Source of the DNA: an uncultured Actinomycetes bacterium
GTDB lineage: Bacteria > Actinomycetota > Thermoleophilia > UBA2241
NCBI GenBank assembly: GCA_963725665.1
Contig: CAVRZA010000002.1
Location: forward strand, 96,001-160,000
Direction of reading: 5' to 3'
DNA length: 64,000 bases
The stretch's first letter is position 1; the number at the start of each line of letters is the position of its first letter. The notes below the pieces were generated by a model. The model saw only the letters and a list, made by a program, of their open reading frames with translations. It ran no database searches and was not told the origin of the DNA. Made by a program: the position numbers and the translations under genes. Shown one piece after another: positions 49,623-58,584 of this stretch.

Positions 49623-49707
49623 GCCGGAGTGGCGGAACTGGTAGACGCGCGGGACTTAAAATCCTGTGGGACATGCGCCCGTCCGGGTTCAATTCCCGGC
49701 TCCGGCA
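49623..49707 (+). tRNA. tRNA-Leu (anticodon TAA), long variable arm
   Basis: GCCGGAG/CTCCGGC acceptor stem, anticodon loop CTTAAAA, GGTTCAATTCC T-arm; 3' end reads ACCT so CCA is incomplete. Confidence 0.96.
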
Positions 49708-49794
49708 CCTACTTTCACCTGCAAATGAGCCTTGCGCCAGTCTCGGCTCCGTTTCTACTAAGTCGGTAACTGCGCACACTGTGCGCACACGCCC

Positions 49795-49921
49795 TCAGTG
49801 GCCCTCGAAGATGAGCGCCGCCACCTTGGTCGCGGCCTCCTCCTGCATGTCGGGTAGAACGTGGCTGTAGAGGTTCAGCGTGATCGCTGTCGTGGAGTGG
49901 CCGAGCATCTCCGAGACCACC
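49795..49921 (-). pseudogene. Tyrosine recombinase / integrase C-terminal fragment
   Basis: VVSEMLGHSTTAITLNLYSHVLPDMQEEAA matches the LGH...Y catalytic box; the rest of the gene is missing. Confidence 0.88.
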
Positions 49922-49939
49922 AGAGAGGAGAACACGATC

Positions 49940-50390
49940 ATGTCTACATCGATCAACAACGTCACGCTGGTGGGCAACCTCACCCGCGATCCCGAGACGC
50001 GCGCCGCCGGCACTACGACGGTCTGCAGCCTGCGCTTGGCCGTCAACGACCGCGTCAAGGACCCCGCCACGGGGGAGTGGGGCGACCGCGCCAACTACTT
50101 CGACGTCGACGTCTTCGGCTCCCGGGGCGATTTGTGCGATTAGTACCTCCGCAAGGGCCGTCAGGTGGCCGTGCAGGGCAAACTGTGCTACCGCGAGTGG
50201 ATGGCCAAGGACGGGCAGAAACGCTCCGCCGTCGCCATCGTGGCCAACAACGTGCAGTTCATCGGGCCGCGCGAGGGCGCCAGCACCACGGCGACCGCGG
50301 GGGCGCGGCCAGCACAGACGGCTGTGCGGCCGCCCTCACCGATGACCTCGCCGCCGCCGAGGACGCCGAGGACGGGATATCCCGTTCTGA
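49940..50390 (+). pseudogene. ssb: Single-stranded DNA-binding protein pseudogene
   Basis: INNVTLVGNLTRDPE, YLRKGRQVAVQGKL; in-frame TAG at 50141-50143; acidic tail and DIPF* (50376-50390) out of frame. Confidence 0.9.
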
Positions 50391-50654
50391 CGAGATGCGG
50401 GCGACCTGCACACAGCCTGAGACGAAGATCCTGCGCGCCGTCGGCAGTCCCATCACTTTCTGCCGCCCCCCACCAAGAAGGTGCTCGCCCGGCACGGAGC
50501 CGAGCACAACGCGGCCGCATGAGCGCAACCCTGACGGAGGGGGCAGGCCCGCCGTCTCACTCAGGGTCGGCGGCCCTCGTCGTTCCCGCCACCTACATAG
50601 TTGCCGCTGGTATTGAGCGCTGTCTAGACTGCGGTTATTACTCGGGTGGTCGGT

Positions 50655-50763
50655 CCCCCGCCTGCTTCATGAAGGAAGCGCCCCCGCTGGGAGAGCGGGG
50701 ACGCTCGTGATGCGAGGGCCAGCCCTTTGGGGGGTACAAGCTGCTAACCCGTACGTAATAATA
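50655..50763 (-). ncRNA. Putative structured RNA, copy 1 (C-rich loops)
   Basis: Direct repeat with 52256-52362; minus-strand hairpins GGGUUAGC/GCUGGCCC and a 13-bp stem; TATTAT -10-like box at the 5' end. Confidence 0.55.
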
Positions 50764-51316
50764 CCGCGCTCCAAACGGCGCTCAATAGCAGGCCCACAAC
50801 GACGAACGCCCCCGCGAGTGGAGGCGCTCGACAGCGAGATCGAGATTGGCGCTTCCTGCGTCCACCCCCAGCGTGTCGGCGATCTTGCGCTGGGAGTAGC
50901 GGGCCGGCCGCGCTCTTGTGCCCGGCATCGCTCGCCCACGGCCGGCCTCGTCTCATCCTAACGCCGCGTCAGCGGCCGCCGGAGGGCCGCAAGGGTGCGC
51001 GACATTGCCCACGACGCGAACGGCCCCGTCGCCGGCGCCGCTTGCGGTGTCGCGTTGGAGTCACGCCATCCTGGGGCTCTGGACAGGATGGCGCATTGTA
51101 GCGTGTTGATGTGAGCCATCCTGGGATTTGTCTAGGTAGTCTGGCCTAGAGTCGTAGTAGGGGTGGCCGCGAGCATCGAGGGCCTACAACCGTCTAGGTC
51201 AGGCCGCCCCGGCCGTGCCTTCTCATCGTACCCCGACTATCCGCTGAAATACCTGCACTCGAGCTTGTGAAAGGCGACACTAGACACACTAGAGTCGATC
51301 GTCAGGCGGGTGACGT

Positions 51317-51535
51317 ATGAGCAGTGTCGAACTGGCATCGTGGTTCGCCCTGGGCCTGTTCTGGCTCTCGCGGATCGCACTTGTCGTAATCGTCGTGGCG
51401 GCGGTCATCGCCATCGTGCGCGTCCTGCGCTTGCCTCCGTACGTGCCCGAGGCGTCCGACCAGGAGGAGATAGATCTGGAGCCGCCTCTCTGGGCGATGG
51501 ACGGGTTGAAGAGAAAGACAGCGCACGGGAGATGA
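51317..51535 (+). CDS. Small hypothetical membrane protein
   Basis: 72 aa with a long hydrophobic stretch; no family recognised. Confidence 0.45.
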   Translation: MSSVELASWFALGLFWLSRIALVVIVVAAVIAIVRVLRLPPYVPEASDQEEIDLEPPLWAMDGLKRKTAHGR

Positions 51536-51538
51536 AGT

Positions 51539-52018
51539 ATGAGCCCACTGTTCACACTAACCGCGACGCAACGTCTCACGGCCGGAGAACAAGCCGTATA
51601 TGACTTCATTTCGGAGGATTTCCAGAACGTGCGGCGCCTCGTGGAACAAGTGGCGGCCGCGAAGACCACGAACACCCACGCGGCAGTCGTCACTCAAATA
51701 GCCGAGGCCGACGCTATCCTGCAGACCACGTACTCAGACTGGCTGGCGATGGACCTTGTGGGCGGACGAGTACATACGCTTGAGCGCGACTACGAGTCCG
51801 TGCTGCGCAGCATGCTCATCGTTAGCGAGAGCATGAAGGCGGTCTTGGCCGCGCCGACGAAGGTCTTGGCCGCTGCAGCCATGCAGGTGGCTCTGAGGGA
51901 GGTCCCTAGACTCACCAGGCGCGTCGGATGGTCCGCCCAAGAACTTGACGCGCTCGCGGCGTACACGGACGGAAACGGGGCACGACCTCGAGGACTTCCC
52001 GCGCGCGCAGGCAAGTAG
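51539..52018 (+). CDS. Hypothetical protein (predicted helical)
   Basis: 159-aa ORF with natural-looking composition, 3 nt after the previous stop. Confidence 0.55.
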   Translation: MSPLFTLTATQRLTAGEQAVYDFISEDFQNVRRLVEQVAAAKTTNTHAAVVTQIAEADAILQTTYSDWLAMDLVGGRVHTLERDYESVLRSMLIVSESMKAVLAAPTKVLAAAAMQVALREVPRLTRRVGWSAQELDALAAYTDGNGARPRGLPARAGK

Positions 52019-52255
52019 GGGCGCGACTGTCTACCCGCTCGTCAGCGCCAGCGTAGCCGGCCCCGTCTTCTCGTAGCGCCCCGTCAGCGCGCGCAGGAAG
52101 GCCGTGGGGGGTGTTGCGGGTTGACGTTGGCGCGCATCGCCGACCGGGCACCACCAATCCTCCTCTAAACGTTAAGGTCACGGTCCACGACGCCGATAGT
52201 AAGAGAGTGACCTCCTGAGAGTGGGGGGCGGCAGGGTGCTGAGAGGCATGGCCGC

Positions 52256-52362
52256 CCCCCGCCTGCTTCATGAAGGAAGCGCCCCCGCTGGAGGGCGGGA
52301 GCGCTCGTGATGCGCAGGTCAGCTCCTTTGGGGGGATCACTGCTAACCCGAACGGGATAATA
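52256..52362 (-). ncRNA. Putative structured RNA, copy 2
   Basis: 36 bp identical to copy 1, rest diverged but stems preserved on the minus strand. Confidence 0.55.
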
Positions 52363-52497
52363 GTCGCACACCGGCGATCGGCCGGCAGACGGTGGCGCAC
52401 CCTTCCGGTACACTGGCGACCAGGACCTCGTCAGGCGCGAACGAAAGGACACCGCGTGGGGCTGTTGCGCCCTCCCGACGTCGCGCGCTATGCGCGC

Positions 52498-53070
52498 ATG
52501 GGTCACATCGACAAGCTGACCGAGGCGGCGCGCAGCAAGCGCTGGCCCGAAGCTGCTATCGCGGCGCGGCGGGCGCTCGGGGAACACATGGACCTGCTCG
52601 TCGATACGCTGGGCAACAAGAGCATGCGCCGCGTCTTGACGGCCCGTGAGGCGCTCAAAGCCATCGGCCGGCCGGCCACCAAGGCCCTGCTCGACAAGAT
52701 CGACGATCCCACCAGGGAGCGTCGTCAGGACGTGGTGCACGCGCTCGGGGAAGTAGGCGATCCCTACGCGGTCAAGGCGCTGGTCGAGCGGCTGCGCGAC
52801 CCCGACGGCTTGGTGCGCCAGCTCGCCTGCCGCGCCCTCGCCAAGATCGGCGATCCGCGCGCGCTCGCGCCGCTGCGGCGCGCCGCCGCCGCCGACCCCG
52901 ACGACTCGGTGCGCAAGACGGCGGCCGAGGCGGCGCGCCGGATCGAGAAGCGCTCCAGCGTTGCCGCGAGCCGAGCCGGGGGCGCCGCGGCCGATTCGTC
53001 CCCATCCGAACAGCCGACCGGCCAGGAGGACGGTGCCGGCGAGGCCGAAGACCAGGAGGAGCGTCCGTGA
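52498..53070 (+). CDS. HEAT-repeat (PBS lyase-like) protein
   Basis: Repeats ALKAIGRPA, ALGEVGDPYAV..L.DPD..VR, ALAKIGDPRAL, DPDDSVRK.A; start set to ATG 52498. Confidence 0.88.
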   Translation: MGHIDKLTEAARSKRWPEAAIAARRALGEHMDLLVDTLGNKSMRRVLTAREALKAIGRPATKALLDKIDDPTRERRQDVVHALGEVGDPYAVKALVERLRDPDGLVRQLACRALAKIGDPRALAPLRRAAAADPDDSVRKTAAEAARRIEKRSSVAASRAGGAAADSSPSEQPTGQEDGAGEAEDQEERP

Positions 53071-54139: not shown

Positions 54140-54988
54140 GTGGGCCGCGGCGAGGTGCTCGCCGCCTTCGCCGAGCGCTACGGGATGACTCTCGAGGGTC
54201 TCGACGGCTGGGCGATCGCCCAGACGATCACCCGGCGTGGCGGCGCCGGTCTTGACGCCAACACGCGCGAGGTGGCCATGGGCATGGCCGCCGAGGCGGT
54301 CCTCGAGCATGCAGTGCGACTCGTCGGCCCGCTGCGCGCAGCGACCAGGCTGACGGCGGAAGCCATGATCGAGCCCCACGAGGGCGACTTCGACGTCGAG
54401 CGCACGTTCGAGAACGTGCTCGGCAAGGAGTTCCCGGAGCCCGATGACTGGGTCGTCGAGCGCCGCCGCGAGCGCCGTCAGCAGGTCGTCCTCATGATGG
54501 ACACCTCGCTTTCGATGGCCGGGCCCAACATGGCGGTGGCCGCCGTGGCGGCCGCCGTCATGGCTCTGAAGCTGCACCCGGGCGACCTGTCGCTGGTCGC
54601 TTTCGAGACAACGGCGGAGGTGCTCAGTCGTCTCGAGGATCCTGTGCCGGCCGAGTGGCTCGTGCGGCGCATGCTTGAGAGACCCTGCAACGGCTACACG
54701 AACATCGAGGCCGCGCTCGAGCTCGGCGCCATCGAGCTCGAGCGCGGTCGCAATCCACGTCGCGCGGGTCTCCTCATCACCGACGGTGTGTACACGGCCG
54801 GCGGCGACCCGCTCGAGGCGGCACGGTCGTTCACTCGTCTCTATGTCATGCTGACGGCTGACTACAAGATGAATCCCGAGCTGTGCCACGCCATGGCGAA
54901 GGTCGGCGGAGGCACCGTCTTTCACGTCGAGGACTTCGGCGAGCTACCGCGGCGCATGCTCGACGTGGCCGACCACGTGCTCAGGTAG
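54140..54988 (+). CDS. von Willebrand factor A (VWA) domain protein; its frame is open back through the slippery site
   Basis: MIDAS DTSLS, GYTNIEAAL, LITDG; in the -1 frame relative to the ATPase; no clear SD at 54140. Confidence 0.9.
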   Translation: MGRGEVLAAFAERYGMTLEGLDGWAIAQTITRRGGAGLDANTREVAMGMAAEAVLEHAVRLVGPLRAATRLTAEAMIEPHEGDFDVERTFENVLGKEFPEPDDWVVERRRERRQQVVLMMDTSLSMAGPNMAVAAVAAAVMALKLHPGDLSLVAFETTAEVLSRLEDPVPAEWLVRRMLERPCNGYTNIEAALELGAIELERGRNPRRAGLLITDGVYTAGGDPLEAARSFTRLYVMLTADYKMNPELCHAMAKVGGGTVFHVEDFGELPRRMLDVADHVLR

Positions 54989-57154
54989 CCGACTCCGGCG
55001 CCTCCGCGCCCGGCAGCAGCTCCTGCCTTGCGCTCTCTGCCTCGGGCGGCTCGACCGACTCGCCCTGCCTCGTCCAGCGCCTGCCCGGCCAGCCGGCCAC
55101 CGGCCCCACGGCCAGCGTAAGCCCCGGCACGAGGGCCGTGCGCACGAGGAAGGTGTCGATGAGCACGCCGATGGCCACCCCGATGCTGATCTCGACGAGG
55201 TCCTTCACGGGCTGCGAGAGCAGGATCAAGAAGGTCCCCGCGAGGATGATGCCGGCGCTCGTGAGCACGCCGCCGGTCGCCGACAGCGCCCTGACCACGC
55301 CGTCCTTCAGGCCCCTGGCGAAAGCCTCCGAGCGGATGCGCGTCGTGATGAAGATGTTGTAGTCGCTGCCCAGCGCGACCAGGAAGATGAACAGGTAGAG
55401 CGGGATGCGGTAGCTGATGTGCTCCCAGCCGAAGAGCTTCTCCGTGATGAGGATGGTCGCTCCGAGCGCGGCCAGGTACGAGAGCACGTTGGTGAGCAGC
55501 AGGTAGGCGGCGGCGACGATCGCCCGCAGCAGGAGGGCGAGGATCGTGCCCACGACGATCAGAGCGGCGATGGCGACGATGATGGTGTCTCTGTTGGAGA
55601 GCGCCCACGTGTCCGCCTGCGTCGCGCTGGGACCGCCGACGAGGGCCGTCCCGCCGGCCGACGCCGCGACGCCGCGCACGGTCTGGCGCAACTCACGCAC
55701 CTGCTCGAGGGCGGCGCTCGAGTAGGGATCGCCCTTCAGGATCACCTGGAAGCTCAGCAGCGTGCCGCTGTCGGCCACGCCCGTGGGGAAGGCGACGGCG
55801 ACGGCCGGGTTCTTGCTCAAGGCGCCGACGACCGCACCCGAGACCTGCTGCACGCCGGCTTCGCCGCCGGCCGGTGCGGCCGGCAGCTTGACCAGGATGG
55901 TCGTGGGCGCGAGCGCGCCCTTGGGGAAGTGCTTCTCGAGCAGCGCGTAGCCCTGCTTCGAGGGCATGTTCCTGAGGAAGTCCTCGGTGAAGCTGAAACG
56001 TGGGCTGTAGAAGAGGCAGCCCAGGGCGAGTACGACGAGGATCGCCGTGACGGTCGCGGCGGCCCGCTTCGGGCCCGCCGCGACCAGGCCGGCGATCCTC
56101 TCCCAGGCGCGATGCCGCGCTGGCGTCGCCCGCGCGCGGCACGCGTGGCCAGAAGGCGCGCCGCCCGAGCAGGGCGAGCAGCGCCGGCATCAGCGTGAGA
56201 CCGGCGATCAGGGTCACGAACACGCCGAGGCCGAGCACGGGTGCGAACCCTTTGTACTCGCCGTACGTGGCGAACAGCAGCGTGAGCACGGCCAGCGTCA
56301 CGGTGAGGCCGCTGGCCGCGATCGCCTCCCATGTCTCTCCCAGCGCCGTCGCCAGGGCCACGCGGTGGTCGGCCTCGCGGCGCAGCTCCTCGCGGTAGCG
56401 CGAGATCAGCAGCAGGGCGTAGTCGGTGCCGGCGCCGAAGAGGAGGATGACCATGAGCGAGGTGGCCTGGCCCGAGAGGGTCGTGCCCATCGCCGTGGCG
56501 CCCGCCGCCAGTATCCCTCCGGCGACGAAGTAGCCGAAGCCGACCGTGACCAGCGGCACGAAGGGCAGGATCGGCGAGCGGTAGATGAGAAGCAGCAGGA
56601 TGAGTACCAGGACGACGGTGCCGACGAGCAGCTTGATGTCGGCGTTAAGGAAGATCTCGTAGACGTCGGTGATGAGACCGCCGGGGCCAGTCACGCGGAC
56701 CTGCATCCCCCCGATCTGGTCGCCGAAGTGCGTGCGGATCGCCTTCACGGAGTCACGGAACGGACCCTCCCCGGGGTTGCCGGTGAGGGTGGCGAAGACC
56801 AGGGCTCCCTTGCCGTCGGGCGAGTAGCTCGACGCGCGTGCTTGTTATGGGCTCGGCGCCGCTCTTCAGCCACGCCTCTCCCTGCGCGATCGCCGCCTTG
56901 TCCGCGCTCGTCAGGGGGGCGTCTGAGCTGTAGACGACGATGATCGGCGTGCCCCTCGACTGCGGGAAGGATGCCTGCTGCAGCGCGTCGGCACGCTTGG
57001 CTTCGACGCTCGCCGGCAGTGAGCGTGAGGCGTCGTTGCTCGTGACGCTCTGCAGCTTGGGGCCCATCGCCAGGGCGCCGGCGATGAGCACCCACAGGGC
57101 GACGACCAGCCACGGGTGCCAGCCGCGGGTAGACCAAGTGATGAGTCGGCGCAT
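54981..57154 (-). pseudogene. MMPL/RND family transporter with two frameshifts (~56835 and ~56115); pseudogene or sequencing error
   Basis: MMPL motifs VTGPGG, FGAGTDYALLLISRYREE, ALGSDYNIF, TGGVLTSAG spread over three ORF segments. Confidence 0.8.
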
Positions 57155-57387
57155 GCGGGGTCTCCGGAAGTCGGGTGTGTCGCGTGACCTGACATGATAC
57201 AGCCTGCGGCCCCGTGCGGTCTCGAACCTCCAGAAGCCGCGAGCGCACCCCGTCGCGGAGTTGATGGGGAGCTGGTCCGCGAATCGCAGAGGAGAGGCGG
57301 TCCTGTCCGCCGTTGCGTTTGTAGCGGGAGCGCCGGCGGCCTAGAGTCTACGTACCGTCCCATCGGCGGTCGCTACAGGTGGGCCTC

Positions 57388-58584
57388 ATGAGGATCCTGT
57401 ATGTGAGTGGTTCCATCGGCTTGGGCCACGCGGCTCGCGACCTGGCCATCGCTCGCGAGCTGCGCCGGCTGCGTCCCGCGGTCGAGATCGACTGGCTCGC
57501 CGGTGAGCCGGGGCGACGTCTTCTCGTCGACGCGGGCGAGAACGTGCTGAGCGGCCCGTCGGCGGTCGATGACACGGCGACTGTCGAGGCCGTCGCCGGC
57601 GCCTTCAGGGCGAGTCTGGTCGACTACATGGTGCATGCCGGCCGTCCGTGGATCGAGACCGTGATCGCGTTCGCCCGCGTGACGCGGCGCTCCGGTTACG
57701 ACCTGGTGATCGGCGACGAGGCCTACGAGGTCTCGATCGGTCTGGCCTGGCTGCTGCGCGACCGGCCGCCGTTCGTCGTGCTCTTCGACTTCGTGGGCTT
57801 CGACCCTACGTCGTCTCGCCTGCGGGAGCGCGTCGGCGCCTATGCGGTCAACCAGCTCTGGATACAGACCGACCGCCGGCACTGGAGGCGACAGAGCGCT
57901 CTCATGCTGTTTCTGGGCGAGGCCGAGGACATCCCCGATCGCGGCCTCGGACCCCTGCTTCCCAACCGACGCGCGCACGCACGAGCTTGCTACCGGTTCT
58001 GTGGCCACGCCCTGCCGTTCGACCCGGCCGAGCTCGCCGATCGAGGCGAGCTGCGGCGGCGCCTCGGCTACGGCGAGGCGCCGCTCGTTATCGCCTCGAT
58101 CGGCGGTACGGCGATCGGCCGCGAGCTGCTACAGCTTTGCGGCGACGCCTACCCGCGCCTCACCGAGCTCGTGCCGGGGGTGCGCCTGGTGTTGGTCTGC
58201 GGCCCGCGCCTCGACCCCACCTCGCTCGACCTGCCCGACGGGGTCGAGGCGCGGGGCTACGTGCCGAAGTTGTACGAGCACCTGGCCGCCTGCGATGTGG
58301 CGGTCGTGCAAGGAGGAGGCACGACGACGCTCGAGCTCACGGCGCTGCGGCGGCCGTTCCTCTACTTCCCGCTAGAGGGTCATTGCGAGCAGGAGGTCGC
58401 CGTCGCCTCGCGCCTTGTCCGGCACGGCGCCGGTGAGCGCATGACCTTCAGCCGGACGACGCCCGAGGCGCTCGCAGAGCGCGTCGCCGCCCTCGTAGGC
58501 ACCGAGCCGCGCTACCCGCCTATCGCTGCCGACGGCGCGCGCCGGGTGGCCGAGGCCGCCTTGCAGCTGTCCGACGGGCGGTAG
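57388..58584 (+). CDS. GT-B fold glycosyltransferase (GT28 C-terminal-like)
   Basis: IGLGHAARD, SIGGT, LAACDVAVVQGGGTT..E, EQ. Confidence 0.85.
   Translation: MRILYVSGSIGLGHAARDLAIARELRRLRPAVEIDWLAGEPGRRLLVDAGENVLSGPSAVDDTATVEAVAGAFRASLVDYMVHAGRPWIETVIAFARVTRRSGYDLVIGDEAYEVSIGLAWLLRDRPPFVVLFDFVGFDPTSSRLRERVGAYAVNQLWIQTDRRHWRRQSALMLFLGEAEDIPDRGLGPLLPNRRAHARACYRFCGHALPFDPAELADRGELRRRLGYGEAPLVIASIGGTAIGRELLQLCGDAYPRLTELVPGVRLVLVCGPRLDPTSLDLPDGVEARGYVPKLYEHLAACDVAVVQGGGTTTLELTALRRPFLYFPLEGHCEQEVAVASRLVRHGAGERMTFSRTTPEALAERVAALVGTEPRYPPIAADGARRVAEAALQLSDGR

Follow-up and report, generated by a model that had tools for sequence, protein, structure and literature searches.

We have analysed a stretch of DNA of 64,000 nucleotides (the window; positions 96,001 to 160,000 of contig CAVRZA010000002.1, assembly GCA_963725665.1) from an uncultured Actinomycetes bacterium, in which two diverged copies of a ~108-bp unit lie as direct repeats on either side of a gene cassette. 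Read on the minus strand, each copy has the look of a small RNA (sRNA) gene whose predicted product folds into two hairpins with C-rich loops. The repeat was characterized by a repeat search and blastn, and the common fold by RNAalifold. The parts of the unit, in coordinates of the window, are as follows.

50655-50763, minus strand: copy 1 of the unit, with TATTAT at 50758-50763, predicted hairpin 1 at 50716-50750 (CCCCCC in the loop) and predicted hairpin 2 at 50676-50706 (CUCCC loop).
3' part of copy 1 after hairpin 2, minus strand: a pyrimidine tail CUUCCUUCAU, then the palindrome CTTCATGAAG, then a G-run.
52256-52362, minus strand: copy 2 of the unit, with TATTAT at 52357-52362, predicted hairpin 1 at 52316-52349 and predicted hairpin 2 at 52277-52306 (CCUCCA loop); tail and G-run as in copy 1.
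50655-50690, no strand assigned: 36-nt block identical to 52256-52291, comprising the 3' arm of hairpin 2, the tail, the palindrome and the G-run.
50758-50785, minus strand: sigma-70-like promoter of copy 1 (TTGAGC, 16 nt, TATTAT), matching at nine of 12 positions.

Two copies of a non-coding unit

That the two segments form a direct repeat beginning with 36 identical nucleotides came from an earlier reading of the same DNA (the original prediction), and both the coordinates and the identical block were borne out by the repeat search and blastn. The copies are 86.4% identical over 110 columns (E = 3.7e-29). There is no difference within the 36-nt block, and the rest of the units is ~80% identical. 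Similarity is lost sharply at both ends of the unit, and the flanks of the two copies are unalignable. By our own arithmetic, uniform divergence would leave 36 nt untouched with a chance of ~3e-4 (0.8^36), and the block is either a constrained 3' part of the unit or else a crossover or gene-conversion tract. The palindrome within it is perfectly conserved between the copies.

Since indels shift the reading frames of the copies against each other, whichever strand is read, the unit is non-coding, and a protein-coding reading of the repeat was rejected. An assembly artefact was also rejected, because the copies are ~14% different and copy 2 recurs with both of its flanks in two soil sequencing runs of two studies, where near-identical 151-nt contigs span 52228-52378 and 52217-52365.

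BLAST and a covariance model built from the two window copies (model R1) both find the unit only twice in the 3.73-Mb, 12-contig genome. A possibility raised with the original prediction, that the repeat is the end of a known insertion sequence (IS) or miniature inverted-repeat transposable element (MITE), was rejected, since two copies in a genome of this size, direct rather than inverted, show no mobile-element match. The unit had no match in the phage collection, and its single match in plasmids, of 32 nt, is a chance match.

An RNA-like anatomy on the minus strand

On the minus strand each copy is opened by TATTAT. In copy 1 this hexamer follows a TTGAGC box at a spacing of 16 nt, as had been claimed, and together they form the sole sigma-70-like site detected on the two strands of 50300-52800, where 0.2 would be expected from shuffled sequences. 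RNAalifold recovered both of the hairpins that the original prediction had drawn on this strand, C-rich loops included, with 22 pairs. Four of these pairs differ on one side between the copies, and all four are still paired on the minus strand (GC/GU, UG/UA, UG/CG, CG/UG), whereas the plus strand would have A-C mismatches at the same positions; the claim that the stem substitutions can pair on the minus strand only was thus upheld. Four compatible transitions out of four in two sequences correspond, by our estimate, to p ~0.06, which is suggestive only.

Hairpin 2 is a 12-13-bp G+C-rich stem, with energies of -24.9 (copy 1) and -23.7 kcal/mol (copy 2) on the minus strand and -21.2 kcal/mol in both copies on the plus strand. 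When the ends of the RNA are set at CGGG...CUUCCUUCAU (81-83 nt), both copies have the same two-hairpin minimum-energy fold, the pairs of hairpin 1 have probabilities of at least 0.98 in both, and at least four of the six C are unpaired with a probability of at least 0.96. When the 3' G-run is included, the pair probability of hairpin 1 is down to 0.42 in copy 2 and to 0.00 in copy 1, in which the C-run pairs with the G-run instead. For hairpin 1 to dominate, the RNA has to end short of the 3' G-run.

Around copy 1 only, there is also an imperfect inverted repeat of 29 nt (50607-50635 and 50763-50791, 79% complementary, with cores TATTGAGCGC and GCGCTCAATA), the right arm of which contains the -35 box of this copy.

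A lineage-restricted family of C-rich RNAs

The original prediction had proposed that a covariance model of both copies be searched in related genomes. Such a search of 88 relatives in the bacterial family with R1 gave weak matches only, of 18-23.5 bits, and no homolog of the window subtype. Among the best full-length matches were L021 and L022, which are members of one RNA family and share an architecture: a C-run is followed by two hairpins, the first short and the second G+C-rich, each with a C-rich loop, and then by a U-tail. With L021 as the query, BLAST detected the element in 24 of the 88 relatives: in all 12 of genus g2 (one to five matches each), eight of 54 in g10, one of three in g7 and the single genomes of g4, g11 and g9, with none among the 13 of g6 or in three more genera of one genome each. 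The same search gave no match in the genome studied here. Upstream, family members (loci L029-L058 and L067-L077 in relatives) have the motif CTTAACACG..CTTAA in common, and a -10-like box precedes the RNA by ~7 nt.

We aligned 25 RNAs of relatives, without any window sequence (alignment A4), and built a second covariance model, R2, from this alignment; members accepted with it score 35-95 bits. In A4, 98% of cells are paired, hairpin 1 is nearly invariant, and compensatory changes are seen at six pairs of the terminal hairpin; the covariation score of the alignment was reached by none of 500 shuffles. In this genome R2 detects two canonical members, G000:C4:118130-118206 (+) and G000:C2:489319-489397 (+), loci L059 and L060, at 52.6 bits each. 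One of them sits between ligA and a tRNA gene read as tRNA-Thr(UGU), and the same tRNA follows the element in a relative of genus g2. Across the class, R2 had matches in 12 of the 25 relatives sampled from the family and in none of 125 genomes of the other ten families. When eight family loci were scanned with Rfam, no model reached its cut-off on the element, the best being 6C (29.2 bits) and suhB (25.4 bits). R2 describes a lineage-restricted, promoter-bearing C-rich RNA with compensatory changes in its terminal hairpin.

Three further observations concern this family. A third C-rich element of different appearance lies in this genome at G000:C2:277664-277738 (-) (locus L061, R2 27.5 bits), with a similar one in L050 of genome G008. 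It is built of a GGUACC-CCCCCA-GGUACC hairpin, GGCUCCUUUC, and then a terminator with a GCCCCCC loop, and its CUCCUUUC resembles the 3' end of 16S rRNA. In an alignment of type A members (A5; e.g. L029, L033, L056-L058 and L038), the 5' CGACCCC is complementary to a GGGGTCG just past the U-tail in about 12-15 of 20, and one type A member has the matching pair CCTCCCC/GGGGAGG instead. This complementarity may serve to mask the C-run in a closing helix, or may reflect an inverted repeat at the DNA level; the C-run and G-run of the window copies form an analogous pair. Finally, L022:202-301 (-), in genome G077 of the same bacterial family, matches Rfam PYLIS_2, the pyrrolysine insertion element of mtbB, at 49.6 bits (cut-off 36).

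Comparison with known C-rich RNAs

An Rfam scan of the whole window at gathering level returned two tRNAs only, and an E-value scan of 50300-52700 gave sub-threshold matches only, to 6C, a CRISPR repeat, ar7 and ncS011, the last three at noise level. The scan that the original prediction had suggested, with 6C included, thus found no family at cut-off on either copy. Rfam 6C (RF01066) scored 22.9 bits on copy 1 (cut-off 47; E = 4 in 2.4 kb) and had no match at E <= 10 on copy 2. We therefore rejected an identity as Rfam 6C, and the description "6C-like" in the original prediction holds as an analogy only. A search for 6C in 121 genomes of the class detected none, which is weak evidence, as the control, C. 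glutamicum, was also below the cut-off.

6C RNA (B11/ncRv13660c in Mycobacterium, scr3558 in Streptomyces) shares with the window copies a host that is here probably actinobacterial, with a G+C content of ~70%, and the predicted window RNA would, like 6C, be ~80 nt long and form two hairpins with C-rich loops, the 3' one G+C-rich. According to PMC6486639, 6C takes its name from a run of six C in the loop of each of its two hairpins, and in Mycobacterium these loops bind G-rich ribosome-binding sites; a similar, chaperone-free pairing of C-rich loops with G-rich ribosome-binding sites is proposed, by analogy, for the window RNAs. According to PMC9569102, mycobacteria carry extra 6C genes on chromosomes and plasmids that are thought to be horizontally acquired, and the window copies resemble these as extra, diverged copies on acquired DNA. 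Unlike 6C, with its CCCCCC in both loops, the window copies have six C in loop 1 only, present in both copies, and CUCCC (copy 1) or CCUCC(A) (copy 2) in loop 2, and their Rfam score is below threshold.

The C-rich-loop sRNAs of Alphaproteobacteria (ar7, RF02342; mmgR/suhB, RF00519), with C/U-rich loops of anti-Shine-Dalgarno type, are alike by analogy only. Their hosts belong to another phylum, ar7 scored 15.0 bits on copy 1 (cut-off 60), and suhB reached its 25.4 bits, against a cut-off of 41, on the canonical copy L059.

Genomic context

Upstream of the repeats, the gene order is mazG, eno, ppx, an actinobacterial neighbourhood, and then tRNA-Leu(UAA). The order past the tRNA gene is an integrase remnant, a gene for SSB, copy 1, a cassette of lower G+C content, a G+C-rich hairpin, copy 2, and genes for a HEAT-repeat protein, a MoxR-type AAA protein and a VWA protein. 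The features that bear on the origin of the copies are the following.

49623-49709, plus strand: tRNA-Leu(UAA) gene, the likely integration site of a decayed element.
49798-49932, minus strand: what is left of a tyrosine integrase, its C-terminal part (match to phrog_1 integrase with E = 2.8e-7; residues 55-97 of a 99-aa open reading frame (ORF) correspond to positions 411-453 of the 611 of the profile).
49940-50520, plus strand: SSB gene, the reading of which meets an in-frame TGA (50141-50143) and changes frame ahead of the DIPF tail.
50764-52255, plus strand: cassette between the copies, G+C 0.62-0.65 vs ~0.70, with a 72-aa ORF (51317-51535) and a 159-aa ORF (51539-52018).
52221-52262, no strand assigned: G+C-rich hairpin (GGGGGGCGGC...GCCGCCCCCC) directly next to copy 2 at its 3' end; on the plus strand, the repeat starts with the C-run of this hairpin.

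The disruption of the SSB gene reflects either a pseudogene or an assembly error, and for the region 49795-50520 as a whole the choice is between a decayed integrated element and, in part, indel errors of long reads. Three relatives likewise have tRNA-Leu(taa) after ppx. In two relatives of genus g2 the order is ppx, tRNA-Leu, a stretch of 1.4 kb, MoxR, VWA and HflK. By our reading of its sequence, the 1.4-kb stretch in one of them (G025) probably holds two membrane-protein genes, and neither of the two has a unit of R1 or R2 type between tRNA-Leu and MoxR.

The 72-aa ORF of the cassette would encode a small, hydrophobic protein with a single helix and has no PADLOC, PHROG or Pfam match. The 159-aa ORF has nine database matches, one of them 99% identical (probably the entry of this very genome) and eight at 46-90% identity, and judging by these matches it belongs to a real gene family. 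No Pfam, PHROG or PADLOC family matches it, the gene is found in none of the 88 relatives, and a search for loci of its family gave 235 pattern matches in genome contigs and 74 in viral contigs, none of either confirmed. In the protein atlas, the best feature score of the 159-aa protein was 0.82, below the usable level.

The integrase remnant, the apparently broken SSB gene, the absence of the cassette gene from relatives and the presence of other genes at the same place in genus g2 lead us to place the copies in acquired, decaying DNA. The original prediction had called the repeats island-borne, and this part of it is supported by the remnant and SSB gene beside tRNA-Leu and by the lack of the cassette gene and of the region in relatives.

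The G+C-rich hairpin segment 52221-52262 has short matches in other contigs. There is also a perfect inverted match of 14 nt, CTGCCGCCCCCCAC/GTGGGGGGCGGCAG, between 50460-50473 in the 3' region of the SSB gene and 52221-52234 in this hairpin.

Discussion

The finding is real and was sensibly read, and it is less special than the original prediction proposed. It is of a known kind, the C-rich-loop sRNA of actinobacteria, and is not 6C itself. A minus-strand sRNA with C-rich loops, as first suggested, is the reading that best fits the anatomy of the unit, judging by the fold, the promoter-like site and the hairpin energies; the RNA itself is a prediction. The explanation that we favour, and to which we would give an even chance, is that the pair are extra, horizontally acquired genes for C-rich-loop sRNAs that work like 6C. 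The two repeats would be paralogous minus-strand sRNA genes, each with its own -10 box (TATTAT). From their anatomy we infer that each is transcribed into an RNA of ~81-83 nt with two hairpins, of which hairpin 1 would expose the CCCCCC run in its loop, and hairpin 2, with its CUCCC or CCUCC loop, would act together with the pyrimidine tail as an imperfect intrinsic terminator. By analogy with 6C/B11, the C-rich loops could reduce the translation of mRNAs in trans by pairing with their G-rich ribosome-binding regions. The copies may be extra, diverged versions of a C-rich RNA type that is already chromosomal in this bacterial family, and may have come with, or been captured by, the now-decayed integrated element at tRNA-Leu.

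A number of observations count against this explanation. Copy 2 has no -35 box. The folding energy of the whole unit is ordinary (minus-strand z-scores of -1.6 and -0.7, plus-strand z-scores of -0.06 and -1.3). A terminator scan of 50300-52800 came back empty, the tail CUUCCUUCAU being no U-run. This subtype comprises two sequences only, too few for real covariation. No convincing BLAST match to the unit came from 60 relatives or from 400 genomes in the class. Exact-pattern scans gave no match in viral contigs for any of three patterns, none in genome contigs, and one chance match in metagenome contigs, which lies inside an unrelated coding region and shows no likeness beyond the 20-mer. Moreover, the surrounding element is decaying, so that the copies may be decaying as well.

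The kinship of the window copies with the lineage family has points on both sides. Run without filters over the window, R2 has the two copies as its best two matches, both on the minus strand, with copy 1 at 27.9 bits and copy 2 at 26.2 bits (E = 1.9e-5 and 5.4e-5), followed by matches of 20.8 and 16.9 bits. As R2 was built from RNAs of relatives only, this lends indirect support to the minus-strand sRNA reading. Other results speak against membership. In 200 kb of other DNA of this genome, the best R2 match, an ordinary G+C-rich hairpin, reached 21.8 bits; the E-values are therefore optimistic, and by our extrapolation a score of 26-28 bits might arise by chance a few tenths of times per genome. 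It also lies below the 35-95 bits of accepted members. A sequence-only search of the genome with nhmmer found the two canonical copies only, and in a targeted sequence-only test copy 1 scored 6.2 bits, reached by three of 1000 shuffles, and copy 2 had no match. In the reverse direction, the canonical copies are not among the seven matches of R1 in this genome at E <= 10. The upstream motif of the family and its GATACT/CAGAAT-type -10 box are absent upstream of the window copies, whose -10 box is TATTAT. Neither is hairpin 1 of the family (AGGGC/GCCCU around ACCCCAA) kept in them; it has non-standard pairs in the R2 alignment, and in copy 1 AGGGC-UG-GCCCU would leave a loop of 2 nt.

What the two have in common is a C-run followed by AAGGGC, a similar spacing to a CCCCG/CGGGG hairpin whose loop is rich in pyrimidines and C, a pyrimidine tail with a G-run behind it, and a promoter-like box of their own, and R1 and R2 match each other's sequences; what sets them apart is the collapsed hairpin 1, the missing upstream motif and the marginal sequence-only similarity. 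The likeness in kind, that is, promoter, C-run, C-loop hairpin and pyrimidine tail, stands. Common descent is plausible but not shown, and the model scores make kinship suggestive.

The arrangement of the locus could also be the relic of a recombination, in which a foreign segment, circular or linear, brought in the cassette of the 72-aa and 159-aa ORFs together with one copy of the unit, and this copy crossed over with a resident one within the 36-nt block. The resulting hybrid direct repeats would mark the junctions of the cassette and need no present function. Such an event would explain why the direct repeats exactly bracket the cassette of lower G+C content, and the perfect block at one end of otherwise ~80% identical units fits recombination as well as it fits constraint at the RNA level, a further point to be held against our explanation. 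A cassette gene missing from all 88 relatives, the decayed integrated element, and relatives with other genes and no such unit between tRNA-Leu and MoxR point the same way. A relic accounts for the arrangement, though not for the promoter-to-terminator look with its strand-specific pairing; there is no intact recombinase, and no relative with an empty site or a single copy was found. If the copies are regarded as attL and attR, the identical 36-nt core is there, with the integrase remnant outside the repeats by tRNA-Leu and no repeat of the tRNA 3' end in the window. We find a relic rather unlikely. A single crossover between diverged copies is the main rival for the arrangement, and it fits with the sRNA reading, in which the sRNA gene would serve as the anchor of homology. 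A bolder combination of the two, that a C-rich sRNA gene acts as a landing pad for gene capture, strikes us as speculative and quite improbable: the 36-nt block, with its terminator arm, palindrome CTTCATGAAG and G-run, would be the crossover site, much as a tRNA gene can be, at which cassettes are inserted and carried between genomes, and the 3' G-run would mask the C-rich seed on read-through as an on/off switch.

The remaining alternatives give the unit a role towards its neighbours. It might be a cis-acting module at transcript ends, with bidirectional terminators or 3'-UTR stabilisers (UTR, untranslated region) for SSB, the 159-aa operon and former minus-strand genes, and no independent RNA gene. 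Each copy does lie 3' of a plus-strand gene (copy 1 after SSB, copy 2 238 nt past the 159-aa stop codon), hairpin 2 is stable on both strands (-21 to -25 kcal/mol), and a second G+C-rich hairpin abuts copy 2. We hold this to be improbable, given that there is no plus-strand U-tract, that the scan returned no terminator-like site, that the G-U pairs favour the minus strand, and that the conserved unit runs ~70 nt past the hairpin to the -10 box, a length superfluous for a terminator. The original prediction also suggested that the RNAs might be antitoxins or dedicated regulators for the enclosed ORFs, a special case of the sRNA reading, of type I or III character, which has no support. The copies are convergent to an operon of the 72-aa membrane ORF, whose product is of the small, hydrophobic sort, and the 159-aa ORF. 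The unit overlaps neither ORF, as an antisense RNA would, and the cassette ORFs match no defence or toxin family in PADLOC, PHROG or Pfam. Duplexes with neighbouring start regions have energies of -28 to -43 kcal/mol and do not stand out from the background (median -37.9), and a 72-aa product translationally coupled to a 159-aa gene does not resemble the known type I toxins; a dedicated role of this kind is very improbable. Equally remote is a promoter or operator on the plus strand, where ATAATA would be the -10 box and the palindrome the operator for genes downstream, for example the HEAT-MoxR-VWA operon. The HEAT gene starts at 52456, 94 nt past the end of copy 2, and the palindrome is perfectly conserved; on the other side, the scan has no plus-strand promoter-like site, no plus-strand gene lies within ~550 nt downstream of copy 1, and genus g2 relatives have MoxR-VWA without this unit.

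If the units are transcribed, deep-branching soil Actinobacteria would use chaperone-free C-rich-loop small RNAs of the 6C type, belonging to families too diverged for recognition by Rfam, and such regulators would travel on acquired DNA, as is reported of the extra 6C copies of mycobacteria. The practical yield of this study is the lineage-restricted RNA family described by A4 and R2, which, with its conserved promoter and compensatory changes, is a candidate for RNA family libraries; the window pair would be a side branch of modest importance.

Other observations

A second variable spot lies further downstream at 54981-58584, where ~3.7 kb between the VWA and HflK genes hold a C-terminal MMPL fragment on the minus strand and a glycosyltransferase gene. 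The same two genus g2 relatives are without this stretch, and their VWA gene adjoins HflK.

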